From assembly GCA_000934665.2 (NCBI GenBank), contig JYFJ02002611.1, positions 1 through 54,132 on the forward strand: a stretch of 54,132 nucleotides of DNA, read 5' to 3'. Numbering within the stretch: the first letter of the stretch is position 1; every line of letters starts with the position of its first letter. Positions 10,865-48,073 of this stretch are shown here, one piece after another. The stretch is from Catajapyx aquilonaris (taxonomy: Eukaryota). Under the pieces are notes generated by a model, which worked only from the letters and a program-made list of their open reading frames with translations, did not search any database and was not told where the DNA came from. A program made the position numbers and the translations under genes.

Positions 10865-10867
10865 TCA

Positions 10868-22889: not shown

Positions 22890-24636
22890 GAATAATAAAT
22901 GTATTTAATTTGGTGCTTGTGCTAGTGAAACGAACAATGCAATTTTTCTTTTTGATAACAATATATTTACACAGAGATTCAACAAGTGGTCCACTTTACT
23001 TTCTCTCCCCTCTGCGGCAGAAAACTTGATTGTTTAAAGTTCGGTTATTTTTGAACCACTCTGTACAGTAACGGTGCCTAGTTAAATAGGTGCTAACCTA
23101 ATGATGATCATGTACACTTCACAAAAGAGGAAGGAGAGGAAGAACAAAAAATGCAATTATCTTAACTCTTTTCCTACATCACAGCTCAACATCTAAATGC
23201 AATTATTTTTTTTCCATACTTAAAGCTAAGTATAGAAGCTATTAACTGGAAAGTATTTGCTACGCATGGTCGAACTCCAGGACTTGATGGAATGATCTTC
23301 TTTCTAGCCAGTGTTACGTGAGAAGCAATATTCCGAGATTTACAAACAACATAAAATTATTCGCAGGTTGCGACAATTGTAACAAGATTTTTACCTGATG
23401 TTCAGCATGGTTTTTGTACTTAGCCAACAATCAGTTAATCATATTCAGTCATACAAAAGTTATCGTAACTTATTACTACTTTTGTAGCTGTGGGATCTTG
23501 ATATCCCTTGATCGTAAACAACTTCGTAGACGCTTACAATCGAGGGCGTTTTACAATCGTATGACCACAAGTACACCACACAATTCTACGGGCCAAAGAA
23601 AATGTTAAAATTCAGCTGGACGATGCGTGTTCCAGTCCGCCGTATGTGAGAAGGTGTGAAAAGTACATGAAATTGGGGGCACATTTAGAATCCTGTTTTT
23701 TGTCCGCAATCCGAAGCTGCATAGACAGCATGAAAGCAGCCTCAAGAGGACTTGAACCCGTTAACAGTACAAGCTGTTGAATTAATTGTGATCGGAAACA
23801 CATACGCACCCTTGATGGTTGATGAAAACTACCTACGTTACTATTGCTGTCTATTCAATAATGCACACAATTTACACAAGGAACTAACAATGCCATTTTT
23901 CACACTTTTTTTGGAGGTCTGGATGCCACATTGTCGCTAAGCTATTTTCATTTGGTCCGTAGCATCATTGTACAATTATGAAACACCTTACAGAGCATTG
24001 TCACCGGAACTAAAATTCATTTCTACATATGAGAAGGACAGTACGTATAGACACGCCACAACAGATCGGATGATGCATAGAAGAGCAGACTGTGCGGTGA
24101 TTGGGTGGCTTTTTGGGCACATGTGTAATAATTGTACATTAAGTGCAGAACTTACCTGATGCAGCTTGCATTTCAAACTCAAGTTACACAATTTCGTACG
24201 AGACTGTACCGTCTCATATTCTACGATGAACCTGTGTGTGGTTATTAGAGCTTCTGGTAAACAGCCATGAGTATACCGAAACATTTACAGACTTACATTA
24301 TTAACTGGGACGTACCTTTTGACTCTCTTTGTGCAATGATTAAGTCATTTAGGGCGAGTCAAAAATACTGCTCATCCGCTGGTGATTTTTCTGCAATCAG
24401 AAGCCGTTAATCCGTCACTTAGACTAATGGTAGTACCAAGTAAATATAAAGAGATATTGCTACTTTGGCTTGCTCAATAATATTGCCTCAGCCTGCGGGA
24501 GGCGAGAGAGCGCAAGTCCTGGCTCGACCAGCCAATTCCTCACGTGCAATCCAACTGAAAAGCACCTCTACAATTAAATTTTTGCATCGACTAGAAACAG
24601 ACTTGTCTCAGGTTCACACGAAGAAGTGTGATCAAG

Positions 24637-26850
24637 TTACGCCCAGATCTGAAAGGGACGGGATGTAGTTAGCAACTGTCTGGACAGATGATTTACTGTA
24701 CGTAGCATGAAACAAATTAATGTACCCTGAGGGTGAAATCCCAGCTTCCAGTGCAGAGAGCAGTTCCGTCGGGTGAGACTCGCAGGCATGAAACTCTGTT
24801 CTCGTGCCCGTACAACATGGCTGCCCTGGTACACTTCAAGCTGTCCCAGGCATTCACCGTGTAGTCATTGTAACCAGCAAACAGAAGACGACCTGCAATC
24901 GTAGCAAACAGGGCATGAAACAGTTCGGAGCTGACAATGTTCTCGTAACTCACCACTAACGGAGAAGTCAACAGAATTGACGCCAAAGATGATGCTGTCC
25001 TTGCTGTAAACCGCCACTTCATTGTCCGCCCTTAGGTCAAATAGCCGACACTGCACCAGAAAGAGTCGAGGTTAATAACTCCTTACCGGCAAATACATCA
25101 TGCCTGTACTCACTGTTGCATCGTCCGATCCGGTGGCAACAGCGTCTCCGCTGGGATGAAACTTAACGCTATTGATGTCTGACTCATGTCCCTCAAATGA
25201 CTGAACACACTGGCCCGTACGCATGTCCCATATCAACGCCCTCCTGTCGCACCCCTACGACAACAACATATCAGTAGATTTTACAGCCTGAACCTTGCTG
25301 ACCTTCTGCCGACTAACTTACCCCAGAAACAAAAGTGTTTCCAGTCTCGCTGGGAGCAAGCGCCAAAGCCATGACGTCCCCATTGTGCCCGTGGAAACTC
25401 TGCAGCATCATTCCGCTCTCAACGTCCCACAGGGCACACGTTGAATCCCCGCTACCCGTCAGGATCTTTGAACAAATTGAAACAAGCATGTCACGTGTTC
25501 GTTTAATGTGCATGATTGGTGCGAATTACCTGCTGATCCGAGTTTGGGAAAGTGCAGCACGACATATAGCTAGTGTGTGTTCCAACCGTCTTTTTCTTGC
25601 TGGACACGTCTTCTTCAAGGCTCAGTGGGTACACAGTAACTTTGTTGTCCAGGCCACTGTTGCCAAATAAAAGCGTTACAAAAGGAGCTCGATTGAGGGG
25701 CTGTGAAACTCACCCGCAGGCAACCAGGTTGCCAGACGGAGCATATGCGCAGGCCATGACCCAGGTGGTGGGCATGGCCACGGCATGCTCCTTGTTGGTG
25801 GTGAAGGCATCCCATATTATCATCTTGCCATCCTGACAACAAAGTGATCACGTTAAATCCCGTCTCAAGATGCACATTTTCCTGCTCAGGTTTACCTGTG
25901 ACGATGACACAACATGTCTCTTGTCCATTGACCAGTCAGAGCAAAGCACTTTGGCCTGATGACCTTTCAGGACACGGCGGGGCTTTATGTTCAGACCACT
26001 TAAGGCATCCAAACGCTGTGCCACTGTCGACACTGGAAATGGACAGCCTCAGGTGGTTACGATCAAAAAGTAAGCACATGTAAAGTACACGCGTGGCTGC
26101 ACACAAGCAGCAGGATTGTAGGAAATAGCTGAGATGCTCATCAGCCATGCAAACAGACCTGTGACCTTCACGAAATCCTTTCCTAGACATGCATGCATTT
26201 CGCTTACAACTAAATGATAATCAACGTTGGAAAAATATGAACCGAGTTTTATTTGCTCATTAATATAAAAATCATAAAAATGCAGGGTTGACATACAAGC
26301 AACGCACACAACATGCAAACAAAGCAGGCTCTGACTAGACCCGGTTTGGGCAGTAATATCACAATGGGATGAACAACAGTGTTGACAATGCAGTGCGGAA
26401 AACGAAACGGCGATCTTATGTCCCTCCCAGTACAATATGAGTAAAGAGTAGCAACAATGTAAGAAACAATGACGTCAGATCGTCGTTTGGTTTTCCTATA
26501 GAGTGTAGGCTATAGTGCGGAAAACCAAACGACGATCGTTTCGTACATTGTTGCTACTGTTCACTCATATTGTTCTGTGCGGGGTATTTCCATGGAAACC
26601 TTGATGACGTCAGATCGTTGTTTAGTTTTCCGCACTATAGTTAATAACGAGGCAAAGCAATAACATTCGCAACGAAGCTTTGCAAGCAACACAATCATGC
26701 GACGGTGTGTGAGCTAGACTGACGAGAGGCGTCGTTGAGCTTGCTCCTCTCCTCCTCAAGCTTAGCCCTGAGGGCGTCCCCTTCCTTGACCAACGCATCC
26801 AGATCAGCAGACCCCTCCTCCGCCCTGAGAGCCTCCGAGGTCATCTTCAT
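24637..26850 (-). CDS. GNB5: Guanine nucleotide-binding protein beta-5 (WD40)
   Basis: Exons encode [108 protein letters not shown], i.e. beta-5-type residues. Confidence 0.93.
26391..26637. repeat. Composite palindrome of four AGTGCGGAAAAC.AAACG.CGATC units in GNB5 intron 1
   Basis: Unit occurs forward, reverse, forward, reverse; the whole stretch is an imperfect palindrome centred near 26505; probable MITE dimer. Confidence 0.6.
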
Positions 26851-27514
26851 TCTCTGTCTCACTGCACCCCTCTCCTCGGCAATGTCTGGAAAGGAAGGCA
26901 ACCGGTGAGTGCACGGTGCGGTACCGCTGCGTTGCTGCATTACCTGTCCTGGTGAGGCCCCTTCCACCCCGACCCCCATCCAACCTGACCCCTGACCCTA
27001 GTGACTGACTGGACACCTCCACTGGGCTACTTTACACAAAGACACGCAGGCGTCGTCAGCGTCCCCCAAACAGCGTCGGCGCCACCCTATTTTCGATCCC
27101 TCGAACCCCCAAGGTACGCACCCAGACAGCCACACTCCACCCGCACCTAAAACCACCCTTGAAAAAACCGCTGTCCCACTTACCCTGTAAACCCGGGTTA
27201 AAAAACCAGTTTTTGGGACACCCAACAGCTACTGCCAGTAGCAGCTACTTGCAATGTAACTAATACTTAAGTGGGACACCCAGCCAGTTTGGGTTGGAAT
27301 AGCAGCTGCGTTACACGACCCTCCATTTTGTGCAAAAAAAAAAAGTTCCCCCCTCCTCTCCCCACTCCCCGTCCTCCCCTTCATAATAAGTAAGTTGGCC
27401 AATATTTTGTGCGTGCAGAATTCCTGAAGGGGGAAGGTCGCATGACGCGTAGCTGAACACTCTCGTTTCCAGGGGCTCTGCAAGTACAGTGGACACAACC
27501 ACAGGGGCAGAAGG

Positions 27515-30500
27515 ATGGAGTGGACGACGGTCCTGCTGGTGGGAGGACTCCTCTTGTTGGGGATGGCTGCTGGGGAGGAAGGAGGTAAGGGTGGAACACC
27601 TCCTGGGCATTGGGTTGGGCCCTTGGCTTGCACCTGTTGGCCCACCGTCATTGGGAGGGGATGGCCGCACCGGCACTGCCAGGCACGGTCAGCAGTCCGC
27701 AACGATGCATAGATTGCCGTTGGTACGCAATGACCCCGTTTAGAGTACGGGCAGTCCCACGGGCATCAGTCACTAGCAGAAAGTATGGATTGTTCTGGAT
27801 CAGTCCAGATCAGCGCACATCGTGCGGTGAGGAATTAATAAGTCTAGTTGAATCCGTGCCAAATGTGCAGGCGCGTAAAATCAACAGGATGCATCTAATC
27901 TGCTGGTCAGCCGATTAAGAGTCCAAATCCAACAAGTTGCAGCAATCAGATTACAGGTCTTTGATTTTTAGCAAAGTTGTCAACTACATGGCCTAATATA
28001 ATAATATAATAAGAATCCGGGTAGTGCTGAGGTATATAGCACGGACCTTTATTTTATACTCATACATAATCGGAACCTTTTTACGTAATGCCCGGGCCCA
28101 CGGGCAAGATGACAGGAGGGGATGTGCAAGGTGCAGTGCAATGTCTTTATGTGGCCATTTTTAGTGAACTCCCCCGGGTGGTTTAGTCTGTAGGAAATAC
28201 CACCCGAGACGAAGCCAGAGGTGACCCAATGAACTCTGCACGAGATGAAGGGGGTGTCGCCGGGCTGGGATCGAACCCGGGACCTTAACATCCGTGGGCG
28301 CATACGTTACCGCAGCACCACTCCGCCTCCCCTACATGGCCTAATACATTTCAGGGTAGTCCGGTGCCTATGACGTGGTGCTGAAGATGAATAGTGCCAA
28401 GGTCATTGATAAAGGGCCAGATTGGGCATGGGGAATAACAATTAGTCATACGTGTGTGTTACTTTACTTTTGATGGCAGTATGCTTCATGGGCACATAAA
28501 ATGGTGCGGACAATATGGAAAGTGAAGTCAGCTGTATTAACAAGCAGTCTAGGGAGGCCTCGTGGTTACGCCACTGGCCAGCCAAGCGGGAGGCCGGGGT
28601 TCAAATCCCGTCCCCATCACCACTGCTTGGCCGGATCTGTTTCCGCTTTTCACCCGACATGCCGGGGGCAGAATTGCACTCCCTACTCTGCCCAGGGCCA
28701 GGAGAGAAGGCCTGGTGTATTTCAGAATGTCAGAAATGACTACCGCACAGCGCCCTCCCTTGGGAAACTTCCCTTCCGCCCTATCACGGGGTATTTTTTT
28801 TTAAGCAGTCTTTGTCATGGCTGACATTGCTGTAAAAAAGAACCGAGTTTAATGAACCTGTTTGCATGGTTTCCGCAGAAATGCAGCGGAATTCCTGTAA
28901 GTAGTCCACATGTGGCAGATGTAAGAATGTGTGGGTTCACTCGCCAACCGTGGGGCTGCCTCGGAAGTCATTGTCACCATTACTTTTGCTATGGCAAATT
29001 TGATGATAAAATAAAAGAGACATGACGTCTAGGGCAGCTCGTTGTGATGTACCTGGGAAATGCGAGCCAGTTTTGGTTGATCTTATATGCAAAAAAAAAC
29101 ACCAACGAAAAACCCCTGCAGGAAATGGTGTTGCACCTCAGGGCCCGAAGTTTGTCGTGGAGGGAGACAGGATCAAAATGAGCTGCGACCTGGATCAATT
29201 TAAGCGCCTGAAGTGGTCAAAAGACGGAAACGAGATTCTCAACACCGACCCCAGAATAATCACCATTCCGTATTCCAATGGGACGAGGATTACCATGATG
29301 GTCATTCATCATGCCAAAGTGGAGGATTCAGGGGTGTACAAGTGCAACCCAAGCTCCGGGGAACTTGTGGTTCATGTCCTCAATGGTAGGAACTATGGCA
29401 CTCAACTCACCAAAAGTCGCAACAGTGTGTGGAATGTGAATAACCAGTAATTCGCTCAACTCTTTGAGTGCACCTTGAGCAAGAACTGTCTTTGGTGACT
29501 CCACAATGAGTGTTAGGTCAGCACGTCAGCATGACCTCATGCTTTTCAACATAGAATCCGTCACAATTAAATTTATACAGTGCAGACTGCCTGGGCCGCT
29601 CTCCAAAATGACGACTCATAAATTTGTAAAATAAACTTAACATGTTTCGGAAGGGTCAGTGTAGCGGACAGCATGTGATATTTCAGGAATATTATTTGTT
29701 ACTAAGTACATGTTAATACCGAGCCATGTGTAAGAGCAGAGCAGCATTAGTTGGTACAAATAGATGCTGTGAATCTAACTCCGCTCCTGAAATATCATCT
29801 GGCATCCGATGCCAGAAATTATGCAGTGATGTAGTACGAGAAGGCAATGTCCATTCAGCATACAATGTAGTAATCTCATATGCGCTAGACAGCATGACTC
29901 GGTGACACTGTCTTGCAACACGATTCATTGCTTAGATAAGTGTACTGTCATCAAGGCCACGTCATGCATAGGAAGCGTGAGAAGCGGCTTTAAGATGACA
30001 AAGTAACTGCATGGCAAACATCTCGTCTCGTGTGTGTTGAGCAGACATTGTTTTAACACGCATGTGTTGCCATGTCTACATGGCAATCCGCACCTGCCTG
30101 TCTAACTCTTGCTTTTTGTTTTGTAGAGTTCACGCTCACTGCCAAGGAGAAGATTGTGCTTATGCCCAAGTCCAGCCTCTTTCTACAATGCAATTCCAGC
30201 ATCAACTTTCAGGCAATGACCTGGTAAGAGTTTGGACTCATTCTATTTCCACATGGCACTGTGCCAAAGCCTTTGCCCGTAGCATTTCTGAAGCCAGTTT
30301 TAAAATTACACTTTGTGGATTCAATGGATTATGTAATGTACCTGAGTTATTTTGGCAGATGCAAAGGTTTTACAATTGTGTGGTACATAATGTAAACCTA
30401 GGGTCGTTATGCTTTTTCTATTGTTTCTGTGACGCTGAGTGATACGGAAGGGGCAGCGAGGTATTGATCCGCCATATTTCCAGGACATTCAATGGCGAGG

Positions 30501-31796
30501 TAATCACCCCCACAAACAAAGATGGCTACAAGCTTGACCCTGAGAAGGGAAGCCTGCTGGTTGATAGTGCAGACAGCAAACATGCAGGGAACTACACGTG
30601 CAGCATAAACAGCACTGAGGTTGAAGGGGAGTCGAACCTGAGCAGAACCATTCAAGTCGTTCGTAAGTCATTTTGTTGCATTTGCGCAGAATTTACTGCT
30701 AACAGATTTGACCATGCTTTTTTTTCCTTTTCAGAGGAACCGTTTGCATATTTTAAATCCAAAGGGTCCTTGAACATGGTGGAAGGGGAAGACTTGACCA
30801 TCTCCTGCAACGTTCTGGGACATCCCAGACCCATTGTCACCTGGGAGAGAGGCAAGTTGCGGAATTACGATGTTATATGATCCTGTTTGTGACACTTGGA
30901 ATATTTGTATAATTGCATCGTGTCTGTGAGGCATCTTTCGAAGTGCATTGTTTAATAATATTGTAATGCAGTATTCAGCTGTTAGTTTAGCGAAAATAAC
31001 TACAACGAAACTTCCATCTATTGTTCTCAGTGGATACATGCTGTGCCCTTGTGAATAATTATAAAGGAATGCCTTTTTTTTTTAACACTTTCAGAGGGAG
31101 TACCCTTAACTCAGGGTGGGAGGATACAATTCAAGGACTATGACAACAGGACTGAACTAATCATCGATGATGTAACAATGGACGACCGTGCCAACTACAC
31201 CTGCATTGTTGCCAACGACCAGGGAAACCACAATGTCACAGTCTACGTCCGAATTAAGAGTGAGTGTTGAATTACTTGCATTGTTGCATCTGAGTCGAGA
31301 AGCGAACCCTAATCGCTCATGCTGAGAATAAATTTCTTTCTTTGTCATGTCACTCAATAAATTAATTTTCAGGCAAGTTGGCTGCCCTCTGGCCTTTCCT
31401 GGGCATCTGCGCAGAGGTTGCCGTCCTTTGTGTGGTCATCTTCATCTACGAGAAGAGGCGCAACAAGACAGAGCTGGAAGAGAGTGATACCGACCAAAGC
31501 CCAGAACAGTACGTCCATTTCTGTGGCCTTTGATTTCTCTTTTTATGGGAGGCAGTAGGGCCAACGTATACTATTTAAACTACTGCCCTTCAAAAATTAT
31601 CTCAGGTTGACGGCTTGATTCTGGGATTAATCATTGGTTGTTCATATGGAGCCAGTTCATGATGGCTTCTTATTGTGATTTACACAATTCTGGATAAGGC
31701 AGCGCTTTTATCATGTCACTAACTCGGCACTGCCATCTCTTTTCCAGGAAGAAACCAGCTGATCGCAAGGAACAGGACGTACGACACAGGAAATGA
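27515..31796 (+). CDS. Bsg: Basigin / neuroplastin-family Ig superfamily membrane protein (3 Ig domains)
   Basis: Signal exon 27515-27584; Ig exons 29122-29385, 30127-30223, 30484-30662, 30735-30851, 31095-31259; TM exon 31373-31508 with diagnostic LAALWPFLGICAEVAVLCVVIFIYEKRR; last exon 31748-31796 ending DVRHRK*. Confidence 0.9.
27999..28331 (-). mobile_element. Full-length tRNA-derived SINE (family 2) with 15-bp TSD
   Basis: A-box-like GTGGTGCTGCGG and B-box GGTTCGATCC on the minus strand, (TAT)-rich tail; TSD CTACATGGCCTAATA at 27984-27998 and 28332-28346. Confidence 0.85.
28551..28802 (+). mobile_element. tRNA-derived SINE (family 3) with 9-bp TSD and oligo-T end
   Basis: B-box GGTTCAAATCC at ~28597; ends in a T run; TSD AAGCAGTCT at 28542-28550 and 28803-28811. 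Confidence 0.75.
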
Positions 31797-32864: not shown

Positions 32865-34923
32865 TTATTTGATAGGAAGGACGCACTGGAAGCCAGGAAG
32901 TGGAGGCCAGTTCTGATCCTGGTCGCAGACTGAATAGGCCAGAGGAAGGCCAGTGGTGCTCTGGAAGGGTTCCCTGCACCTGTACACGGCCATGGTACCC
33001 TCCGAGTGCAGCACATCATGGCACTGCACCTCCCTTCCACTCGGGGCATGGCAACTCATCTCCATCTCTTCTATCGGAGGTGGAGGAGGGGCCTCGCATG
33101 CTATCCTGTAAGGAACTGTGGAGACAAGAACACGTTGGTAACGCCTATACTTAAATATCGACATCATTCACACACCTCCTGTTATTTCACATACGGAAAA
33201 CAGCCCAGTGTAATGTGGCAAGGTGGAAAGAGCATTAATGTATGCTGCTGGTACATATCCAGCGAAGTGTGGAGGCGCTTCATCTCGTGCTGTTGGAAAA
33301 CCATTGCCCCATTCCCTGCAACAGACATCATTAGTGTGGCCAGTGATAATGTACTGCAGTGGACAGGCGGTTTGTTACAAGATGGTCGAATCGTGACTGG
33401 TTCCATCAGTCCATTTCCACTCTCTTATTAGGTTGTCTTTAGAAAGGCCGATCCAGTATAATCTGACGTCATAATATCCCATGGCCTCTATCAGCCACTC
33501 CTGCAAGTAAATGTATGGCTATCATTAGCGACTAACAACTTGTACCATTAGTGATATAATTGTAGAATATTCCAAAGTGTGATATTCATTAATGCATCAA
33601 AATGAATAATAATAATTCTGGCAGATAATTAATTCGATTTTCTCAGCCCCTCATAGCTTGGACTTCGGACACTTCAGAATTTGGTTTTCCAATTACATTT
33701 GAGGGCTTATTTTATTACCTTCTCATCCTGTGAATTGACCGACACTAAATCCCCTCCACTTCCTATGCATCTCTCTCTGGCATCAAACCACGTTGTCCGA
33801 TAAAAAGTTTCCAGGTAGTAACAGCTTGTGGAACCTTCTCTATTCAACCAATACTCGGGGCATGGGTCATATCCCCTACCTGCAAGAGGGAATGTAGCGT
33901 ATTAGCGGAGAGCAAGGAGTAAATCATGCATGATATATAAGCTCCTCTGGGACATCACAGTCCTAATAAGCGAGCCACACTTGGGACTAATTAGCTTTCA
34001 TCTAAATTGAAACGCTGTGAATAAGTATAGAAAGTCACCTTTTACTCTTTCGCACACAAAGTTCCATATCACACGGCAATCTACATTCGCAACATTGATT
34101 ATGTGGTACGTGATTGCCACAAAACCACAATGATCAGTGTGATTTATTGCTGAAGGTTCACCGATGCCCCACTTCCTGGTATAATTGAAGTTAATTAGTG
34201 AGTATTGGGGACACAACGACCAAGACAACATGTTGTCTGTGGATACTTACAGTGATTCAGAGCTTTGAAAGTCCCTTCCATCTATCCATTTCCACTTGTA
34301 TCCTCCGACACCAGGTGATGTCTCTTCGTACACTGCTCTCAGTCCAATGTACCAGCCCACTTCATGCCCCAGGAGGGTGGGGTACATCTTTGAAGCTATC
34401 CAATCCTGGGCATAAAATTGTGTTATTACATGTAGTCATCAACTCAAGGTCGACGGGGGCCGTGGCTTGTTCCTTGTTACTATTGTGATCATTTCTGTGG
34501 AGTAAGAGACTTACCCATTCCTTATCAGAGTTCACCACCAGCAGATCACCTCCCTTGGCTCGGCACAAGTCGCGCGATTCCTGCCAAGTATGAAACTCAT
34601 CCTGGAGCAAGTAGCAAGAGGTTTCGTCTGGAGGGGATATCCAGTCTGCAGGACATTGTGCAGCCAAGGCGCCTGCGAGGAAGCTTTATCATCAATATGC
34701 TGGTTGTAAAACAAGCCCATTATTTGCAAATTACATTATAACATCTGTGAAAATTTTGTCGCCATTTGCATGGGCAACACCAAACTTTGAGATGGATAAT
34801 GTCATTGATTCTCTGCATCGATCTTAAAGAGATATCGTTGACTGAAATCCAAGTGAGGAAGACAGCAGACAAAATGAATTTGACCTTACCATAAGCCAGA
34901 AGGATGAGGGCAAAGTAGCACAT
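32865..34923 (-). CDS. Lectin A1: signal peptide + 2 CTLD + six-Cys Sushi/Wonton-like module, 8 exons, intact
   Basis: MCYFALILLAYG|ALAAQCPADWISPP..CY..TWQESRDLC..GGDLL..WYIGL..WKWIDG..GEPS..C..C..FVCE; second CTLD with YWIGL..WKWTDG; final exon ACEAPPPPP..C..C..EGTMAVYRC..C..NWPPLPGFQC. All junctions in frame. Confidence 0.85.
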
Positions 34924-35191
34924 AGTGTGCTGCCGGTAACGAGCACTAGTCAAGACTTGGTACATGTCGTGTAGTGTTATCAGGTATGCAGGATGTGTGT
35001 GGCGGGGAGAGTCTTTTCTTGTGTGGACGACTCACAGTAGAAAAACCCACCATGGAAAAGTATGATACCTTTGGGACATACATAAATTAATTTTGTATTT
35101 CCTCCCTGTGGTCACCCTATAATTACGCATCCTGCCACAGTCTACGTGTTACATGCCTGATAACAACTGCTCACAAGTTACTTGGTATGCA

Positions 35192-37106
35192 ATGGATTCA
35201 GCTGGATTGTACCATTGCATCTTGCTCGTCATCTCATCAGTTTCTGTAGAATGTAAGTCAACTTCCCTGTGTCACACGCATATATTCCTGTTGTCCTAAT
35301 ACGTATCATAACCCTCAGCGGCAAGATGTCCCCAGAGTTGGATATCCCCACCAGACGAGCCTTACTGCTACCTGCTCCAGGAACAAGAGATGACATGGCA
35401 AAAAGCACGTGAATCATGCCAAAATCAGAGAGGAGACCTTCTGGTTATCAACTCAGAGAAAGAATTGGTGAGGAGACCCCTGCTGGTACATGCTCACATC
35501 CCAATTATTATTATGTATTCAATACACCGAAGTAAGTTGGTATGGTGGTTAAGGAGCCTGACTGCTAATCGGAAGGTCCTGGGTTCAAGTCCCAGGGCCG
35601 GCAATCCTAACAGTGGTTTTCTGTTGTTTTCCACGGTCCCCCCAGGATAATTCCGGGGTTGTTTCCATATAATAGGCTACAGCCGCCTCCTTCTTTCCCT
35701 ATCCTCAGCCCCATTCAATGGTGGTACTCCACCCCCCTAATGGACCTCCGATTCTCCCAATGGGGTATAAATAAATAAATAAAACAAATAAAATTATCTA
35801 TTCAATACAGGAGTGGATAGTTTCAAAAATTAGTCGCCATAACCAAGAAATCTTAAATATTGAAACAAGGTGGTGGGTTGGGTTGAGAGCAACTGAAGAA
35901 TCCTCCACTATTGGAAGCTACCAATGGAAGTGGGTGGATGGCACTGATTATGACATGTGAGTAAGTACATATGAACCTTCTCCAACACATTTTAAATACA
36001 AACCTCTGTCATTTCAGGCCATGGGCCAGTGGTCATCCATACAAAGGAATCTACAGTGAAGACTGCGTGGTGTCTCGTAGGACAATGATCTATCACATAT
36101 TTATTGATAAAGATTGTACAAAAAGGTACAATTTTGTTTGCGAGAGAGGTACAGTGTAAATTGATTTTCCTTTACAAGATGCAGTACGATCAAATCAGTC
36201 AGGTGCAGGTGATGCATTGCAGAGAAGGAAACCACAAGCGGACTTGGATGTCCAAACTTCTGGCTTTCGAGACGTGGTTCTTCCAGCTGTTATCTGTTGG
36301 CTTCAAGACTGGAGAAGTCGTGGCAGGATGCTCACGAATTTTGCAAAGCAAATGGTGGATATTTAATATCAATCAACTCACTGGAAGAAATGGTATTGTC
36401 TCACTGCTTTCTTGTAGACTCATGGGGAAACAAAGTCTACCAAGTCTGCTCGTTTTCAGGCATGGTTGAGAGCTGTTACGATAACCCCCACAACTAAATT
36501 TAAAGTTTACTGGATTGGTCTGTCAGACATTGACCGGGATGGAATCTGGGAGTGGACGGATGGACGCACTGTTCCAACCAACTCAACATTCCTGCAAGTA
36601 TTCGCATATCAAAATTCATTTTTAATAACCAGCGGAAAAAACAATTTCCAAATGTCCATGACTGCAGAAAATGGCCCGAAGGATATCCTCGAAGGAGGCA
36701 AGGCTTGTACCACTTTGGGTTGTTGAGTTCCATTGATGGGAGTGGTCTGAGGAGCGAATCGGAACACTCATATTTTTCATCAGTGTGTGAGCAACGTGGA
36801 AGTAAGTTGTTGGTTTACTATTTATCAGTTGAAAAAAAGATGTACTCCTTCAATGAAATTGCTTTTTTGTCAGTTGAGTACGTGGTGAGCTGTGAGGCTC
36901 CTCCTTTGTCTGAGAACCAAGAGGTGAGATGCTACAAACCAAGTGGGACAGAAGTGCAATGCCGTGACGTGCTGCATGTGGAGGGCACCATGGCCATGTA
37001 CCAGTGCAAGCCTCCTTACCAGAGCACCACTGGCTTCCCGCATGCTTACTCCATGTGCGAGCCCAATCAGAACTGGCCTGCTATTCCAGGATTCCAGTGC
37101 CGATGA
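35192..37106 (+). CDS. Lectin B1: signal peptide + 2 CTLD + six-Cys module, 8 exons, intact
   Basis: MDSAGLYHCILLVISSVS..CPQSWISPPDEPYCY..WWVGL..WKWVDG..DCV..DKDC..FVCE; CTLD2 YWIGLSD..WEWTDG; last exon SCEAPPLSENQEVRC..FQCR*. Needs a GC donor at intron 6. Confidence 0.85.
35530..35783 (+). mobile_element. tRNA(Ser)-like SINE (family 1) with (TAAA)n tail, in B1 intron 2
   Basis: TGG..TGGTTAAGG A-box region, GACTGCTAATC anticodon-arm-like sequence, B-box GGTTCAAGTCC; body shared with 1112-1516. Confidence 0.8.
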
Positions 37107-37347
37107 CTCCTGACACCTGGATAGGAATCTACATGAAATGACAGGGAATTCTACTCACTCTGTCAACATTATCAGCATTATATTTTATTCCTACACTAAT
37201 TACATTATAAGTAGAGTACAATTCAATAAATGATGGTGGTTATTTCTTGGCTGTTTACCTGGATATCAATTTTGTCATTTTACTTGTACATGACCTGTTG
37301 AGTATTTACATATAGGCGATGATTGTACAAAATGTCCTCAACCAGGA

Positions 37348-39385
37348 TTATTCGATATGAAGGACACACTGGAAGGCAGGTAGTGGAGGCCAGTTCTGAT
37401 CCTGGTCGCAGACTGAATAGGCCATAGGAAGGCCAGTGGTGCTCTGGAAGGGTTCCCTGCACCTGTACACGGCCATGGTACCCTCCGAGTGCCGCACATC
37501 GTGGCACTGAACCTCCCTTCCACTCGGGGCATGGCAACTCATCTCCATCTCTTCCATCGGAGGTGGAGGGGCCTCACAAGCTATCCTGTAAGGGACTGAA
37601 ACAAGTGCACGTTGGTGATGCCTTTCTTTGTAAAGCTGTACATCAACCACACACCTCCTGTTATTTCACACACAGAATACTGCCCGGCACTATGTGGGAA
37701 GGTGATAAGACCACTAAACTGTGATGCATACAATGCAAAGTGTAAAGGAGCTTCTTCTCGTACCTTCGGGTAACCTTCATACCATTCACTGCAACATATA
37801 AATGATTAATGTGGCCAATCACACATAAATAAGTGCAGGGGAGGGCCACATTATTACAAGATTCTTGGATCATGACTAGTTCCATCAGTCCACTCCCACT
37901 CTTTGGTCAGGTTGTTCTTGGAGAGGCCAACCCAATAAATGAAAATCCTGTAATATTCCATTGCCTCTCTCAGCCACTCCTGCAAGTAAATGTGTGAACT
38001 TTGTTATCGAGTCCTTGGAAGTCTAATTATATTACCTTTTCTTCCTGTGAATTGACCGACACTAAATCTCCTCCGCTGGCTTTGCATTCATCCCTAGCTT
38101 CAAACCACGTTGTCTTTAAGGTATTGATGTAGTAACAGCTTGTGAAACCTTCTCTATCCAGCCAATACTCAGGACACACGTCGTGTCCTCCTTCTGCAAA
38201 TTATCAGGTGTTGGATAATGAAATCCCCCATATAGAGCATGGTACTAATAAGCAAGACATTCAGAGCACAAAATAATAACCCCTAATCTAAATTAGATGG
38301 GTAATGAATAAGTTTTTTGATATGTATTGTTTATTTAGCTTTACCCCATTAGAGGGAAGAGAACCCTTTTAGGGGGGTGGAATACCGCCATTTTTATTAC
38401 GAAATTTCTTCGCATTTTTTTCTCTCCGGTGCAGGGGTCAGGATAGGGATTTGTAAGGATGAGATACGGGTGGAAGTGTGCAGCATCAAGTGCGATGTCC
38501 ACCAAACTGCTTCAGTGGGTATAAATAAGTTTAAAGAGTCACCTTTTTCTTTTTCGCATGCAGAGACCCACGTGAGAATACCATCAAAATTGAAAGCCCA
38601 AGTTAAGTTGCCACTATTTATCGCCAAACCACAATCGTCGTTACTTGGTGAGTAAATTTCATCTGAAGGTTCGCCATTAGCCCATTTCCTGAAATAATTA
38701 TTAACGACACCCCTTATTGGGAATACAGCTTTAGGTTGTCTGTGGATACATACAGAGATGGAGAGCTTTGAAATTCCCTCCCGTCTATCCATTTCCAGGT
38801 GAATCCTCCAACACCAGGTGATGTCTCTTCGTACACTGCTCTCAGTCCAATGAACCAGGCCACTTGACGTCGGTAGTAGGAGGGATACAACTTTGAAGCT
38901 ATCCAATCCTGCTCAGTGGATTCTGTTAGTACGTCCATTGTTGCGAGCATTTTTGTATAGTAAGAGATTGTTACCCATTCCTTATCAGAGTTCACCACCA
39001 GCAGATCACCGCCCTTCTCTTGGCACAAGTCGCGAGAATCCTGCCAAGTATGGAACTCATTCTGGAGCAAGTAGCAAGAGGTTTCGTCTGGAGGGGATAT
39101 CCAGTCTGCAGGACATCGTGCAGCCAAGGCACCTGCAAGCAATTCTGCTGGTGAACGGACTGGTTGTAAAACTTTCCGTCTAAAACATCAGTGATAATAA
39201 CATTCTCTTTATAGGCGTGGACAACACTGAACTTTCACATTGATAATTGAGATGTCGTTAATTATTCTCTATTTGCATCTTAGGAGATAACTATCATTGA
39301 CTGATATCCAAGTGACGATCACAGCAGACAAAATGAATTAGACCTTACCATGCACCAGAAGGATGAGTGCAAAGGAGTAGTACAT
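37348..39385 (-). CDS. Lectin A2, intact reading frame
   Basis: Eight exons homologous to A1 splice in frame; GEPSD motif; one inner CTLD1 Cys replaced by Gly; ends FQCVLHIE*. Confidence 0.82.
38330..38480 (-). mobile_element. 3' fragment of SINE family 1
   Basis: Reverse complement of ~1370-1516 (e.g. CGAAATTTCTTCGCATTTTTTCTCTCCGGTGCAGGGGTCAGGATAGG). Confidence 0.75.
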
Positions 39386-39565
39386 ATATGGTCTTTCTGG
39401 TAACGAGCATGAGCCAAGACTGTGGTTGAATGCTGTCATTTGTTATCAGGTATGCAGGATGTGCGCGGCAGGAAATATCCTACTGTGTGGACGACTCGCA
39501 GTGGAAAAGTGATTTTTAAGTAGGCTGCAGCCTACGTGTTACCGGTCTGATACCCTCTCACAAGA

Positions 39566-41239
39566 ATGGATTCATCTGAATTGTACCATTGCATTTTGCT
39601 CGTCATTTTCTCAATATCTGCAGACAGTAAGTTGTTTGAAATAAGTGTTGTCTTTCAATGGCTGTTGACCTCCCCCACACTTTGCCATTCACATTGGTGA
39701 TTGATAAATTGCCTATTAACCTAGTGCATCACAACTCTCAGCTGCAAGATGTCCCCAGAGTTGGATATCTCCTCCGGATGAGCCTTACTGCTACCTGCTG
39801 GAGGAGCGAGAACTGACATGGCAAGAAGCACGTGAATCGTGCCAAATGCAAGGAGGAGATCTTCTGGTTGTCGACTCGGAGAAAGAATTGGTGAAGGGAC
39901 GCTCCTGTGTTGTTTCTCCTGCATACATGCTCACATGATAATCATCTCCTAAATTCAGGAATGGATATCTACAGCAATCAGTCGCAATGTCCGACGAATT
40001 TGGTATGTCACAAGGTGGTGGGTTGGGTTGAGAGCCACTGAAGAATCCTCCAACAACGGAAGCTACCAATGGAAATGGGTGGATGGCACTGATTATGACA
40101 TGTACTCATCACTGATGTACGGAAGTAGTGAATCTTCCCCAATACTTTTAAACACAAACCTGCGTCATTTCAGACCATGGGCCAGTGGTCATCCACGTAA
40201 AGACTCCTACAGCAAGGACTGCGTGGCATCTGGTAGCACGATAATCTCCGAGTTTTTCCTTCAAGATTGTACAGAAAGGTACCATTTTGTTTGTGAGAGA
40301 GGTACAGTGTAACTTGATTTTCCTTTGCAAAATGGCAGTGAGGTCAAATAAATCAGGTTCATATAATGCATTGCAGAGAAAGAAACCAGAAGTAGACGTG
40401 GATGTCCAAACTTCTGGATTTCGAGACGCGGTTCTTCCAGCTGCTACCTAGTGGCTAGGAGAATGTACATATCGTGGCATGATGCTCACGAATTTTGCAA
40501 GGAAAAGGGCGGATATTTAATATCAATCAACACACTGGAAGAAGTGGTATTGTCTCAGAGCTCACTTCATATTATTGTAAGCGAAACAAGAAGGGACCAA
40601 GTCTGCTTCTTTCCAGGCATGGTTGAAACGTGAAAGACCTATCGAAACCAACAGCAATATGTATTATTGGATTGGTCTGTCAGACATTGACCGGGATGGA
40701 ATATGGGAGTGGACAGATGGACGCACTGTTCCAACTAACTCCATATCACTGCAAGTAAAACAAAACCCAATATTAATAAACAGTAAAACACAATTTGCAA
40801 ATCTCTCCGACTGTAGAAAATGGCCTGAACGATTTCGTGCCAATAGGCATAACTTTGCGTACTGGACATATGGTGAAGATGAAAGTGATCTGAGGAGCGG
40901 ACCAGAACACTTATCTCATGGATCGGTGTGTGAAAGACGTGGAAGTAAGTTGCTGGTTAACTTTCTCTAAAAACCAGGCCTTTAATAATTCCACTTTCTT
41001 TGTCAGTTGAGTACGTGGTCACCTGTGAGGCTCCTCCATTGTCCGAGAACCAAGAAGTGAGATGCTACAAACCGAGTGGGACAGAAGTGCAATGCAGTGA
41101 TGTGCTGCACGTGGAGGGTACCCTGGCCATGTACCAGTGCAAGCCTCCTTACCAGAGCACCACTGGCTTCCCGCATGCTTACTCCATCTGTGAGCCCAAT
41201 CAGAACTGGCCTGCTATTCCAGGATTCCAGTGCCGATGA
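39566..41239 (+). CDS. Lectin B2, intact
   Basis: MDSSELYHCILLVIFSISAD..; eight exons homologous to B1, all in frame; ends FQCR*. Confidence 0.83.
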
Positions 41240-41763: not shown

Positions 41764-42400
41764 GCATGGCTGAAAGGTGTTATTACGATAACCCCCACAA
41801 CTAAAGTTTACTAGATTGGTCTGTCGGACATTGACCGGGATGGAACCTGGGAATAGACAGATGGACGCACTGTTCCAACCAACTCAACATTCCTGCAAGT
41901 ATTCGCATATCAAAATTCATTTTTAATAACCAGTGGAAATTTGCAAATGTCCATGACTGCAGAAAATGGCCCGAAGGATATCCTCGAAGGAGGCAAGGCT
42001 TGTACCACTTTGGGTTGTTGAGTTCCATTGATGGGAGTGGTCTGAAGAGCGAATCGGAACACTCATATTTTGCATCAGTGTGTGAGCAACGTGGAAGTAA
42101 GTTGTTGGTTTACTATTTATCAGTTGAAAAAAACATGTACTCCTTCAATGAAATTGCTTTTTTGTCAGTTGAGTACGTGGCGAGCTGTGAGGCTCCTCCT
42201 TTGTCGGAGAACCAAGAGGTGAGATGCTACAAACCAAGTGGGAGAGAAGTGCTATGCCGTGACGTGCTGCACATGGAGGGCACCATGGCCATGTACCAGT
42301 GCAAGCCTCCTTCCCTGGCACCACTGGCTTCCCTTATGCTTACTCCATGTGCGAGCCCAATCAGAACTGGCCTGCTATTCCAGGATTCCAGTGCCGATGA
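41764..42400 (+). pseudogene. Lectin B3: 3' fragment (exons 6-8) copied from B1
   Basis: Nearly identical to 36460-37106 including introns; TGG>TAG at 41812 and 41854, 1-bp frameshift near 42312; no upstream exons. Confidence 0.88.
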
Positions 42401-42646: not shown

Positions 42647-44826
42647 TTATTCGATATGAAGGACACACTGGAAGGCAGGTAGTGGAGGCCAGTTCTGATC
42701 CTGGTCGCAGACTGAATAGGCCAGAGGAATGCCAGTGGTGCTCTGGAAGGGTTCCCTGCACCTGTACACGGCCATGGTACCCTCCGAGTGCAGCACATCA
42801 TGGCACTGCACCTCCCTTCCACTCGGGGCATGGCAACTTATCTCCATCTCTTCCAAAGGAGGAGGAGGAGGGGCCTCACAGGCTATCCTGTAAGGAACTG
42901 TGGAGACAAGTGCACGTTGGTGATGACTTCATTGTAAACCACTACATCATCAACACACCTCCGGGTATTTCACACTCAGAATACTGTGCGGCGTAATGTG
43001 GAGAGGTGAAAAGAGCATGAATGGTTGGTGCGTACGTCGCAAAGTGTAAATCAGCTACTTCTCGTACATCCGGGAAACCTTTGTCCCATTCACTGCAACA
43101 GAAATCATTAGTGTTGCCAATAATCGTGTGCCATGATGAACTGGCAGTTTGTTACAAGATGCTCGAGTGGTGACTGGTTCCATCAGTCCATTTCCACTCT
43201 TCTCTTGGGTGGTTTTTGAAGAGGCCGATCCAAAAAACTGCAATGTCGTAATATCCCATGGCCTCTATCAGCCATTCCTGAAAGTGAATGTATGGCCATT
43301 GCCAGCAAGTGCAGTCTTTTCTTGGAAGTCTTGATTTAACATTGATTACCTTCTCTTCGTTTGAATTGACCGACACCAAAATAATCCCCTCCACTTGCTT
43401 TGCATTTCTCTCTGGCTTCAATCCACGTTGTCGTGAAGGTGTTCACGTAGTAACAGCTTGTGGAACCTTCTCTCTCCAGCCAGTAATACTCAGGACATTC
43501 GTCTTGTCCTCCATCTGCAAAACAAAATGTTCTAGTATAGGAGGAGATGCCTAATAATTATAATCTCCTAAAGGATAGTCCTTATGTCCTAATAGGCGAG
43601 GCATACATGGGCACAAATTACTCCTAATCTAAATTAATATGGTGTGAATTGTATTTTAAAATGTCACCTTTTCCTTTTTCGCATACAGAGGACCAATGAG
43701 GCAGAAGGCATTAATAATTGATAGTCCCAGTGAAGTTGCTATTAAATATTCCCAATAATGCCAAACCACAGAAATCGTCGTTAATTGGTGGGTAAATTTC
43801 GTCTGAAGGTTCGCCATTAGCCCACTTCATGTTAATCAGTGTTGGGTAGGCTACTGCATGGGACAAAAGATGCCGATAAAATGAATCACCTTGTTCACTA
43901 TACTGACTATAGTATTTCATGGTACCGGACTTTGAATTTTTGTTTCTAACTTGTCAAATAATACCTTTTTTCATATTTACCTGTAAAAACCGTGTTAAAA
44001 GTTTTCGAAGTTTGTGAATACATACAGTGAGTCAGAGCTTTGAAAATCCCTTCCGTCTATCCGTTTCCAGGTGTATCCTCCAACACCAGGTGATGTCTCT
44101 TCGTACATTGCTCTCAGTCCAATGTGGCAGTCCACTTGAAGTCCGTAGTAAGAGGGATACAACTTTGAAGATATCCAATCCTGCTCAGTGGGTTGTGTTA
44201 TTACACTATTGTGATCATGTGAAGTAAGAGACTGTTACCCATTCCTTATCCGAGTTCACCACCAGCAGATCACCTCCCTTGGCTCGGCACAAGTCGCGAG
44301 ATTCCTGCCAAGTATAGTCGTCATCCTGGAGCAAGTAGCAAGAGGTTTCGTCTGGAGGAGATATCCAGTCTGCAGGACATCGTGCAGTCAAGGCGCCTAC
44401 AAACAATACATATTTTTATTGTGGTCATGAACATAATATATGGTACTGGTTGTACACTCTTAGCCATTTACCTTCTCTAGAGAAGGTAAAAAAGAGGCCC
44501 TTTTTACCCTCTATTTTATAAGGTAATACATGCAAAAGTTACCTTCTAATCAAGTTACCCTTTAATAATTTACCCTCTAATGTAAAGTAAAAAATGCTTT
44601 CACTGATACCGGTTTTAACAGTATACTGTTAATCATCAGTGAAAGCATTTTCTTCGGACACGTGGACGTGGACAACACCGAACTTTCACGGGTGGCTGTC
44701 ATTGATTCTCGATCATTATATGGAGTTTACAGAGATATTGCTGACTGATGTCCAAATGATAATGACAGCAGACAAAGTGAGTTTGATCTTACCATGCGCC
44801 AGAAGGATGAGTGTAAAGTAGTACAT
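42647..44826 (-). pseudogene. Lectin A3, full length but disrupted
   Basis: Exon-4 acceptor AG lost (~43829), in-frame TAA at 43713-43711, 4-bp insertion in exon 5 (~43380); no head-to-head B partner. Confidence 0.8.
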
Positions 44827-45143
44827 AGGATGCTGCTGGTAACGAGCATTACCCACGACTGATTGTATGTCATCGTGCATTGTTATCTGATATACAGGAT
44901 GTGTGGCAGGAAATAGCTTACTCTGTGGACGACTCACAGTGGAAAAGTGTGATTTTTAAGTAAGCCGCAGCAACCTGGAAAGGAATAGACCCAAATCATA
45001 GCAACATTTTATTCCAACGTATAGTACACTGCAATAAATCCTAGTTGTTTCTTTGCTATTTTCCTGGATTTCAAGTTTTTATTTTTATTTAGAGGATACG
45101 AGGACTGTTTACTCTCGTGACAGTACAAATTATGTTGACGAGG

Positions 45144-47866
45144 TTATTCGATTGGAAGGACGCACTGGAAGCCAGGAAGTGGAGCCCAGTTCTGATTCTT
45201 GTCACAGACTGAATAGGCCAGAGGAATGCCAGTGGTGCTCTGGAAGGGTTCCCTGCACCTGTACACGGCCATGGTACCCTCCGAGTGCAGCACATCATGG
45301 CACTGCACCTCCCTTCCACTCGGGGCATGGCAACTCATCTCCTTCTCTTCCATCGGATGTGGAGGAGGGGCCTCGCATGCTATCCTGTAAGGAACTGTGG
45401 AGACAAGTGGACATTATGACGTATAATTAAATCTGTACATGATCAACACACCTCCTGTTATTTCACACACGGAAGGTAGTCTTGCGAAATGTGGCACTGT
45501 AATAAATACATGATGGGCTGGTATATATACACCAAAGTGTGCATGCCCTTCGAATGATTTTGGATAATTGTTCCCTTCTATCACCAAATCTTGAGCCCAT
45601 TCCCTGCAACAGATATGATTAATGTGGACAATCAGATATGAACTTCTGCAACAGAGGGGCAGATTGTTACAAGATGCTTGAGTCATGACTGGTTCCATCA
45701 GTCCATTCCCACTCTTTGGGTAGGTTGTTCTTGGAGAGGCCGATCCAATATTCGTTAGTGCTGTAATATCTCATTTCCTCTCTCAGCCACTCCTGAAGCG
45801 GAAAGTGTGGCTATTGTTAGCAAGGGCGAATATAATAAACTGTAGCCTACCATCAGTAATTGAAACGCTCGACCATAACATTGGAATTGGGTTCCTCCAA
45901 TTGACTTCGAGGGGCTTTAATTAAGCTTACCTTCTCTTCATGTGAATTGACCGACACCAAATCCCCTCCACTAGCTTTGCATCTCTCTCTGGCTTTAAAC
46001 CAAGTTGTCTGATGAGTGGTCTCCATGTAATAACAACTAGTGGAGCCTTCTCTGTTCAACCAATTCCCAGGACATGAGTCATGTCGTATCTCTGAAAAAT
46101 AGAAAATAATGTGCTTCTGATGAGCAACAGGACGATGCTTAACCCCTTCGCTCCCAGCTAGGCCTACAGATTTTGCCTTACGCGTGCTTTGAAGATATGG
46201 ACAAGATATTTTGCAAATAATAACAGCTATATTCATCTATTCAGGGTAAACACTACGAATACGCTTGGAACAATTTTCCTCAGCCTAGAAGTCCCTAAAT
46301 TAATTTCTAAAAAGAACGCCGCAAAGTACGTATATATATACAGTATATAGGTAGGCCACCAGCGCAGCGCCTAGATTTTCGCTTGCACTTACTCTGAAGA
46401 TAAGGACAAGATATTGTTATTCCGTATGTAGGCTATTTGATAATGAAATCAGCCTAACAGTTGGCTGGTAGTCTGAAATTTGGAGTTTTTACAGCGATAT
46501 TTTTGAAAATTAATTTAGGAACTTCTAGACAAGGAAGACTATTCTAACCACATTCCTATAGTGAAGAGCAAGAACGTGATTTATGTTCACTTGAGTGTGA
46601 ATGCCATTGAAATAGTTTAGGACATCGTATTCCTACTAAACAAGACGTTAATGGCACAAATGACAGCTAATCTAAATTACAATGTTACTAATACGTAAAT
46701 GGAAAAGTCACCTTTTCCTTTTTCACATACAGACGAGTAACCGACAGCACATATTGTATTTACAGCCACGATGTTGGCGCGATAAACCATCGCAAAACCA
46801 CAGTAAGAGGTGACATACATTCCTGAAGGTTGACCAACACCCCACTTCCTGGAACAATTCAAGTTAATTAGGGAGTGCTGGGTATACTGCATGGGACAAA
46901 AGGTGCATACCATTGCGGTATCTATTTTGTCTTTCATAGCACTTGTTGTATACGATACAGTACGCTATAAGGTGAAGTGGGGTAAGTGCATGCACGGGGT
47001 AAGTGCATACACGGGGCCGCCATATTGGAATGAAAATGGCTGACGACACCAACACGGGGGGGATGTTATGTGCAGCTACACAAAAGAGTGCCTGACGCGT
47101 TTTGGTGTCGTCAGCCATTTTCATTCCAATATGGCGGCCCCGTGTATGCACTTACCCCGTGTATGCACTTACCCCACTTCACCTTACATCGATTCCTAAA
47201 TCTTCAGAGATTTAGGAATCGATTTGTATTACGAGCAGGATCTGTCAGAATGATTCTATCATGTGTAGGAAGCATGGTGCACGATCTGATTTGGTGGCAC
47301 ACAATTGCAACCACCCAACAGCAAAAACAACGACACTGTCTTGTACGTCTTGTATGAACCCATAAGTTGTCTGTGGATACATACAGTGATGGAGAGCTTT
47401 CAAAGTCTCTTCCGTCTATCCATTTCCACTTGTATCCTCCGACACGTGGTGATGTCTCCTCGTACACTGCTCTCAGTCCAACGAACCAGCTCATTTCAAA
47501 CCCCAGGAGGGTGGGGTACAACTTTGAAACTATCCAATCCTGCTCAATGGAATTTGTTAGTACTTCCATTGCTGTGAGCATTTTTGTGGAATATGAAACC
47601 TACCCATTCCGAATCAGAGTTCACCACCAGCAGATCACCTCCCTTCTCTCGGCACAATTCGCGAGATTCCTGCCAAGTTTTGAAGTCGTCCTGGAGCAAG
47701 TAGCAAGAGGTTTCGTCTGGAGGAGACATCCAGTCTGCAGGACATTGGACAGCCAAGGCACCTGCAGGAAAGGTAGTTGAACATACTGATTAAAAATTTT
47801 CATATTGGCATAAGTATTTCCTTTGACCTTACCATGAGCCAGAAAGATGAGTGCAAAGTAGTACAT
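45144..47866 (-). CDS. Lectin A4, intact
   Basis: MYYFALIFLAHG..; eight exons in frame; GQPS motif in CTLD1; ends FQCVLPIE*. Confidence 0.82.
46190..46570. repeat. Second copy of the 41400-41740 repeat, in A4 intron 4
   Basis: Direct sequence similarity as described for 41400-41740. Confidence 0.55.
46970..47184. mobile_element. TA-flanked foldback MITE in A4 intron 3
   Basis: ~83-bp near-perfect TIRs AGGTGAAGTGGGGTAAGTGCAT... with an internal ~19-bp direct repeat; TA on both sides. Confidence 0.82.
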
Positions 47867-48073
47867 AGGGTGCTGCTGTTAATGTGCATTAGCCGGGACT
47901 TGTTGGTTGACGAGCAGTGATGCTATGAGACATTCAGGATGTGTGTGGTGGGGAATATTGTCTTTTCCTGATGTGGTCTCCCTATCGCTGTACAATATAC
48001 ATCCGGGCGCAGCATACGTGTCAGTGTGTCACTTACTCATATGTAGATTGCTCACAAGTAACTTTGGTATGCA

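Follow-up and report, generated by a model that had tools for sequence, protein, structure and literature searches.

A C-type lectin-like domain (CTLD) followed by a complement control protein (CCP, or Sushi) module or a Sushi-like module is known from lectican G3, the selectins and the CD93/thrombomodulin group. Insect immulectins are described with two CTLDs only. Like them, the soluble lectins of the Fugu F1 group carry a signal peptide and two tandem CTLDs, in a simple architecture of two CTLDs only (PMC514892). The available excerpt of the report on the oyster lectin CgCLec-CCP describes one carbohydrate-recognition domain (CRD) and one CCP without a protease, and the binding of microbes (PMC8605247). 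According to this excerpt and to that of a review (PMC12842671), CgCLec-CCP associates with the CUB domain of a CCP-less MASP-like protease, after which cleavage of C3 takes place. The Wonton domain of Manduca HP14 and Drosophila ModSP is by definition Sushi-like with six Cys, and it is placed in the order LDLa(4-5)-Sushi-Wonton-protease (PMC10036332). In this study, we compared these systems with the gene p36 and its paralogs in Catajapyx aquilonaris. They are located on contig JYFJ02002611.1 of assembly GCA_000934665.2, whose whole analysed stretch of 54,132 nucleotides (positions 1 to 54,132, forward strand) is called the window below. The last exon of p36 codes for a six-Cys Sushi module that follows two CTLDs.

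The gene p36 is composed of eight exons, which join into an uninterrupted frame of 385 codons. Its architecture is signal peptide-CTLD-CTLD-Sushi, with the Sushi module at the C-terminus. The exons and the signal behind them are as follows.

35192-35252, + strand: exon 1, ATG and a hydrophobic, signal-peptide-like leader; donor GTAAGT, phase 1
35319-35467, + strand: exon 2, first CTLD; Pfam Lectin_C E 9.1e-5, 23.6 bits against a cut-off of 22.6
35811-35956, + strand: exon 3, first CTLD; gene model
36018-36148, + strand: exon 4, first CTLD; gene model
36223-36392, + strand: exon 5, second CTLD; Pfam Lectin_C E 5.3e-4
36460-36593, + strand: exon 6, second CTLD; Pfam Lectin_C E 2.5e-4
36668-36801, + strand: exon 7, second CTLD; gene model
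36874-37106, + strand: exon 8, Sushi module and stop codon; acceptor AG at 36872-36873, behind a phase-1 intron
37225-37230, + strand: AATAAA polyadenylation-type signal, 119 nt past the stop codon of p36; motif only

Each CTLD of p36 is divided among three exons, as is common in vertebrate CTLD genes. Lectin_C matched the exon pieces 2, 5 and 6, and the other three lectin pieces were too short to score. Homologues of the leader exon are present in the paralogs p40, p49 and p53, and proteins of the p36 type would be secreted, judging from the hydrophobic leader. Splicing was investigated with two sequencing runs, the DNA run X1 and the low-depth run X5, whose contigs skip GT..AG introns and which was therefore treated as RNA-derived. 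Three of the seven p36 introns are skipped in this way (35956>36018, 36391>36459 and 36801>36874), and none of these three splice joints is present in X1. The joint 36801>36874 is found in X5 and missing from X1; therefore, real transcripts do carry the Sushi exon spliced behind the second lectin domain. Intron 6 (36594-36667) is of the GC-AG type with the donor GCAAGT, which is invariant in all five + strand copies (p36, p40, p41, p49 and p53). This donor is required because the reading frame is kept only with it.

The Sushi exon (36874-37106, + strand) encodes a module of ~76 residues; a reading in frame from 36873 gives a peptide of 77 residues with six Cys. The peptide ends one residue past the last Cys, and the TGA codon (37104-37106) follows directly. 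An in-frame tblastn search with the focal module detected full-length copies at ten sites between 32.8 and 54 kb of the window, five of them per strand, and tblastn also found one orphan piece.

+ strand: module copies at 36873, 41006, 42168, 49549 and 53717 (in-frame tblastn)
minus (-) strand: module copies at 33116, 37596, 42898, 45395 and 50544 (in-frame tblastn)
50008-50055, + strand: orphan Sushi-exon piece, 16 residues of the 3' end of the exon (tblastn)

The module is unbroken in nine of the ten copies, and the copy at 42168-42397 is spread over two frames. The alignment of the nine unbroken copies has 40 invariant columns, among them all six Cys, the EGT.A.Y.C motif, the QSTTG stretch and a Trp. 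The spacer between Cys1 and Cys2 has 12 residues in the + strand copies and 13-14 in the - strand copies. The extra Cys pair, nine residues apart, is placed between the canonical Cys1 and Cys2. A preliminary description made from the letters of this DNA had reported a repeated six-Cys module. The module is real, as seen from the ten tblastn copies and the six Cys that are invariant in the nine unbroken ones. The Cys pattern given there found no match in the six-frame translation in its literal form, whereas with x12 in place of x11, and x5 in place of x4 before the Trp, it gave nine matches, all at the module copies. The module had been said to start at 36880; the exon begins at 36874, as indicated by the RNA-derived joint and the gene model. 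A stop codon almost directly after the module had also been described. This is exact in the five + strand copies, where TGA is the next codon, whereas the - strand copies add five residues (11 in one of them) before TAA.

The module is a CCP/Sushi domain carrying an additional Cys pair. All searches agree on this identity, and each of them is weak alone. The preliminary description had recognized a Sushi/CCP core supplemented by a further pair of Cys and had proposed profile and structure searches as a check. Searches of both kinds found Sushi/CCP similarity, and the identification is supported by the alignment, Pfam, a profile search of Protein Data Bank (PDB) sequences and fold searches. Pfam Sushi (PF00084) matched all nine unbroken copies at E <= 0.1, with a best E value of 1.8e-4, and it was the only consistent family. 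The focal copy reached 16.2 bits (E 0.014), below the cut-off of 20.7 bits, and the m37 copy reached 21.2 bits, above it. With the nine-copy profile, all eight matches at E <= 1 among the PDB sequences were CCP proteins (seven factor H constructs and one CD46). The best of them (E 2.4e-5) was aligned across the EGT.A.Y.C core, and the HMMER alignments with factor H CCP1/2 span from this core to the Trp. A search with the single sequence gave the same CCP matches and three weak ones to the CGRP-receptor ectodomain (E ~0.5). The CCP hallmarks, namely the four consensus Cys, the Trp between Cys3 and Cys4, and the hydrophobic Y/F-x-C strand, are invariant in the alignment.

The fold is consistent with this assignment. 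From the shallow alignment of nine rows, AlphaFold2 produced one confident model (predicted local distance difference test score, pLDDT, 79.9). The predicted model has the CCP beta-sandwich, with modest scores. Among the 46 Foldseek matches listed, 44 were CCP-bearing chains (PAPP-A, GABA-B sushi, C1r, factor H and beta2-GPI), all with E >= 0.16, and the remaining two were AMA1/i-body complexes. VIA-align against about 48,000 representative chains listed 50 matches, of which 49 were CCP/Sushi proteins as judged by their titles (Z 4.4-6.8). The matches listed include beta2-GPI as the best (Z 6.8), C1s, DAF, MASP-1/2, MAP-1, IL-15R-alpha, an E-selectin lectin-EGF-SCR structure and a CD93 'CTLD and Sushi-like domain' structure. 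The 30 nearest ESM Atlas clusters of each of two queries comprised 22 and 22 Sushi clusters, 4 and 5 clusters with Sushi_2 and Sushi, and 4 and 3 without a common family. A profile search of 1.84 billion representative proteins gave six matches at E <= 0.001, three of which were multi-Sushi proteins. The other three (P0001, P0002 and P0005) were compositionally odd, showed no family stretch by stretch and were given no weight. A word-indexed homology search with the module, with longer proteins admitted, returned one candidate, which was unscored.

The module resembles the PF00084 modules of factor H CCP1, beta2-GPI, C1s and MASP in its length (about 60-75 residues), in its four canonical Cys with a Pro-rich stretch behind Cys1, in the G-T-x-A-x-Y-x-C strand and in the Trp that precedes the last Cys. 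Unlike them, it has a Cys pair between the canonical Cys1 and Cys2, and it is single and C-terminal and is not part of a string. In the predicted model, a strand (residues 16-21) leads into a short return, and the extra Cys pair would form a local disulfide that staples the Cys1-Cys2 loop.

The gene ends with this module. The preliminary description had already read the locus as a CTLD-CTLD-Sushi gene without a protease, and several observations agree with it. A stop codon is conserved after the module in all copies, and AATAAA is found downstream in p36. The convergent paralog m37 ends close to p36, with 241 bp between the two stop codons. S1-protease motifs (GDSGGP and TAAHC-type) were absent from every frame of the 54-kb window. 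Because of the stop codon, the AATAAA signal, the convergent neighbour and the lack of a protease motif, splicing from the Sushi exon onward to a protease exon appears very unlikely.

The Sushi exon is conserved more strongly than the lectin exons. Nonsynonymous (dN) and synonymous (dS) divergence was calculated by the Nei-Gojobori method on the intact copies, that is, a pair of + strand genes (p36 and p40) and a trio of - strand genes (m33, m37 and m45). At the protein level, the Sushi exons are 95% identical within the p pair and 92% within the m trio; among the same intact copies, the identity falls to 38-64% in the last of the three exons of each lectin domain, where the long-loop region is encoded. 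The dN of the Sushi exon is 0.023 in the p pair, compared with 0.204 for the pooled CTLD exons, and 0.036 in the m trio, compared with 0.223. The corresponding dN/dS values are 0.10 vs 0.45 in the p pair (Fisher p 0.014) and 0.30 vs 0.46 in the m trio (p 0.14). Exon 7 of the p pair has a dN/dS of ~1. The ranking of the exons was unchanged when the broken copies were included. Between the two subfamilies, the Sushi exon is 61% identical, whereas the CTLD exons are 32-41% identical, except for exon 2 (62%). Moreover, the Sushi exon is unbroken in nine of the ten copies, though five of the genes are broken elsewhere.

The ten copies form a tandem array of two subfamilies, called 'p' (+ strand) and 'm' (- strand), whose Sushi modules are ~60-61% identical to each other. 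Eight of the genes are arranged in four head-to-head pairs (m33 with p36, m37 with p40, m45 with p49, and m50 with p53), in which the leader exons are ~180-270 bp apart. Outside the pairs, m42 is unpaired, and p41 is a 3' fragment. The members other than p36, and the head-to-head 5' regions, are located as follows.

34890-35192, 39349-39566, 47823-48074 and 51993-52230: head-to-head 5' regions
39566-41239, + strand: p40, eight exons with an intact open reading frame of 381 residues; Sushi exon 41007-41239, 95% identical to the focal one
41764-42400, + strand: p41, exons 6-8 only; frameshift in the Sushi exon near 42311
48074-49782, + strand: p49, eight exons; frameshift in exon 7 (~49380); Sushi exon 49550-49782 intact
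52230-53950, + strand: p53, eight exons; in-frame TAG in exon 5 (~53177); Sushi exon 53718-53950 intact
32865-34923, - strand: m33, intact from exon 2; Sushi exon 33115-32865; leader exon near 34923-34890
37348-39385, - strand: m37, intact from exon 2; Sushi exon 37595-37348; convergent with p36
42647-44848, - strand: m42, stop in exon 4 and frameshift in exon 5; Sushi exon 42897-42647 intact
45144-47876, - strand: m45, intact from exon 2, with two longer introns; Sushi exon 45394-45144
50275-52038, - strand: m50, frameshift in exon 2, without exons 4-5; Sushi exon 50543-50275 intact, with an 11-residue tail

Five of the ten genes are intact (p36 and p40, and m33, m37 and m45 from exon 2). The array is a typical birth-and-death family, and the breaks in its genes could include assembly errors. 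The head-to-head layout points to bidirectional promoters shared within the pairs; the paired genes are perhaps co-expressed, or their products form heteromers.

We consider it fairly probable that the module is the extra-Cys CCP tail of secreted CTLD-CTLD-Sushi proteins, which form a lineage-specific birth-and-death array, and that this tail docks onto a common partner. The two lectin domains, whose ligand-loop exons differ by 45-65% from one paralog to another, would serve as variable recognition heads, and the Sushi tail would be the constant part that docks every member onto the one partner. Candidates for the partner are a MASP-like or modular protease, a C3/TEP-type protein, a cell-surface receptor and another lectin subunit. 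The domain identity, the architecture, the splicing into the Sushi exon, the lack of a protease exon in the window and the contrast in conservation are observed here, whereas secretion, an immune role of the array lectins and the docking function of the tail are proposed. The oyster lectin is like p36 in that a C-type lectin and a CCP are combined without a protease domain, and the mechanism in the excerpt of its report is the one that the preliminary description had proposed for this locus (PMC8605247). It differs, by its description in that excerpt, in having one CRD, whereas p36 has two (PMC8605247). The adaptor idea is plausible, and its precedent has already been published for CgCLec-CCP.

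Several points weigh against this interpretation. Regarding the domain, every similarity score is weak: the focal copy stays under the Pfam cut-off (16.2 vs 20.7 bits), four of the five AlphaFold models are poor (pLDDT 40-54), Foldseek with the module model gave no match at E <= 0.001, and all Z values of VIA-align are below 8, a range that, as the tool warns, possibly reflects a mere common arrangement. Regarding the transcript, the X5 contigs give no cover over 36919-37106, the 3' end of the transcript, and they include sequence from two predicted introns (36181-36222 and 36611-36667), which we take for unspliced RNA, although it may also reflect intron retention or alternative acceptors. 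Of the copies, half are broken (p41, p49, p53, m42 and m50). Regarding the constancy of the tail, the dN/dS contrast lacks significance in the m trio, whose three pairs are interdependent. The dS is also lower in the Sushi exon than in the CTLD exons (0.22 vs 0.45 in the p pair and 0.12 vs 0.48 in the m trio); therefore, gene conversion or a younger 3' end, beside purifying selection, may explain part of the Sushi conservation. Finally, the role of the CCP as the interacting part of CgCLec-CCP is only a speculation of the oyster authors in the excerpt of their report (PMC8605247).

The preliminary description had likened the module to Wonton. If the module were a true homologue of the Wonton domain of ModSP/HP14, the lectins could be protease-less adaptors or decoys in a complex that initiates the Toll/prophenoloxidase cascades, which we regard as very improbable. 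The six invariant Cys fit the published verbal definition of Wonton, a Sushi-like domain that has six Cys rather than four (PMC10036332). In HP14 orthologues, the Wonton position is now annotated as a second Sushi/CCP, as two Sushi domains (PMC7215089) or 2CCP (PMC10036332). Because the newer annotation calls Wonton a second Sushi/CCP, it belongs to the same superfamily as the module. However, the context that defines Wonton, in which it sits between Sushi and the S1 protease behind LDLa repeats, is missing both at p36 and in the window. The gene p36 reads signal peptide-CTLD-CTLD-Sushi-stop, without LDLa, a second Sushi domain or a protease. Trypsin or LDLa was found in none of the six matches of the 1.84-billion-protein profile search and in none of the 30 nearest ESM Atlas clusters of either query, and the best sequence matches of the module are to vertebrate factor H CCP1. 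In addition, Sushi variants with extra Cys arise repeatedly. Clusters of Pfam Sushi_2, the family of the fifth domain of beta2-GPI, appear among the ESM Atlas neighbours of the module, and the selectin repeats are another six-Cys case. Six Cys are not diagnostic of Wonton because such variants occur elsewhere. A specific kinship of the module with Wonton, which was compared by its published description alone, is accordingly given a very low probability.

The Sushi module might also have no partner of its own and act as a structural cap or spacer that stabilizes or orients the adjoining CTLD, as is thought for lecticans, selectins and CD93. A CTLD directly followed by a CCP or Sushi-like module recurs where the lectin domain binds, as in a fragment of a Fugu versican paralog with EGF, CTLD and CCP domains (PMC514892), and the E-selectin and CD93 structures are among the fold matches listed. 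However, in a family that diverges fast, the exon with the highest conservation is not expected to encode a mere spacer, and the 61% identity of the Sushi module between the subfamilies stands against the much lower values of all CTLD exons but exon 2; this explanation is unlikely. Somewhat less likely still is a non-immune role, in which the secreted lectins would serve in gamete recognition, the sorting of food particles or mucus, or biomineralization, and the tail would attach them to a matrix or cell. Birth-and-death arrays with fast-evolving binding loops, such as exon 7 of the p pair, are also typical of reproductive and mucosal lectins, and the available excerpt of a study of bivalves reports C-type lectin subfamilies whose expression is mainly in the gill and the digestive gland (PMC10140915). 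The sequence itself holds nothing directly against this possibility, but the sole functional precedent that we found for a soluble CTLD+CCP lectin is immune, according to the excerpt of its report (PMC8605247). A more elaborate scheme, which we think improbable, is that the m and p genes of each pair are co-expressed from shared promoters, that their products form heteromers with four variable lectin domains, and that the tails recruit a CCP-less MASP-like or modular protease. A complex prediction for the m-type and p-type Sushi tails gave a score of 0.01 against a mark of 0.34, in a run without controls in which the alignments were unused, and it carries no weight for or against the scheme. 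If this scheme were true, the array would represent a lectin-pathway design in which the CCP is carried by a combinatorially diversified lectin and not, as in vertebrates, by the protease.

The array of CTLD-CTLD-Sushi genes with a conserved tail can also be placed among the known architectures. Unlike the immulectins and the Fugu F1 group, p36 has a CCP exon spliced on behind its two CTLDs. Unlike lectican G3, the selectins and the CD93/thrombomodulin group, it has two CTLDs instead of one and lacks EGF, a transmembrane segment and a proteoglycan core. No EGF or anchor exon is present in the 385-residue model, and Pfam searches of the exon pieces found only Lectin_C and Sushi. Two CTLDs with a terminal six-Cys Sushi domain were not found described among the literature matches listed from a narrow search, and lineage-specific CTLD architectures are commonplace according to the excerpt of PMC10140915. 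The pairing of CTLD and CCP and the dual-CTLD soluble lectins are already known, and the array is a lineage-specific variant of the CTLD+CCP lectins. This study is therefore a routine domain assignment and gene-family description, and it presents no new kind of system.

Some further observations concern the genes of the array. The second CTLD of p36 (exon 7, 36668-36801), inspected by eye, lacks the two Cys of the usual inner CTLD disulfide and has no EPN/QPD-type tripeptide. At the sugar-binding tripeptide position of the first CTLD, also inspected by eye, the m genes have EPS/QPS and the p genes have HPY/HPR/YPR, which suggests that only the m-type first CTLD retains a classical calcium/sugar site. 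The gene m50 keeps exons 2-3 of the first CTLD and exons 6-7 of the second, and it would encode a hybrid single CTLD but for the frameshift in exon 2. An acceptor at 36178/36179 would shift the frame of p36. The word depth of X1 is ~270-290 at the Sushi exons (36911-37092 and 37366-37547), compared with ~32 nearby; therefore, near-identical Sushi exons are common to many copies, and the number of Sushi-exon copies possibly exceeds the ten in the window. Intron 2 of p36 contains a repeat (35480-35800) with a tRNA-like stretch, where the X1 word depth is ~5,800-8,000, compared with ~32 in the single-copy flanks. Further copies of this repeat in the window are found at 1109-1254 (86% identical) and 38316-38392 (weak). 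ARAGORN called no tRNA in the intron 2 repeat, which is probably a short interspersed element (SINE).

The rest of the window contains other genes. A tandem cytochrome P450 array is located at 1800-17000 on the + strand, where several similar P450 open reading frame sets were seen by eye, and Pfam p450 was found on the two pieces tested (E 4.8e-19 and 2.6e-13). The regions 18680-27000 and 29010-30877 hold an ankyrin-repeat gene (- strand), a FAN1-like nuclease gene with FAN1_HTH and VRR_NUC (+ strand), a G-protein-beta-like WD40 gene (- strand) and an Ig-domain gene (+ strand). These neighbouring genes are all compact and have short introns. The assembly has a single N in this window, at 4687.

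The points of this locus most worth attention are the head-to-head pairing of the two subfamilies and the constant tail. Soluble lectins that bear a CCP are candidates for the missing recognition arm of the complement-like and protease cascades of invertebrates, and we have so far found one such lectin with a shown function, in oyster, as described in the excerpt of its report (PMC8605247). The combination of diversifying heads with a constant tail in the array of C. aquilonaris offers a ready test of whether the tail is a common effector handle, and the tail itself could be used as a bait for its partner.

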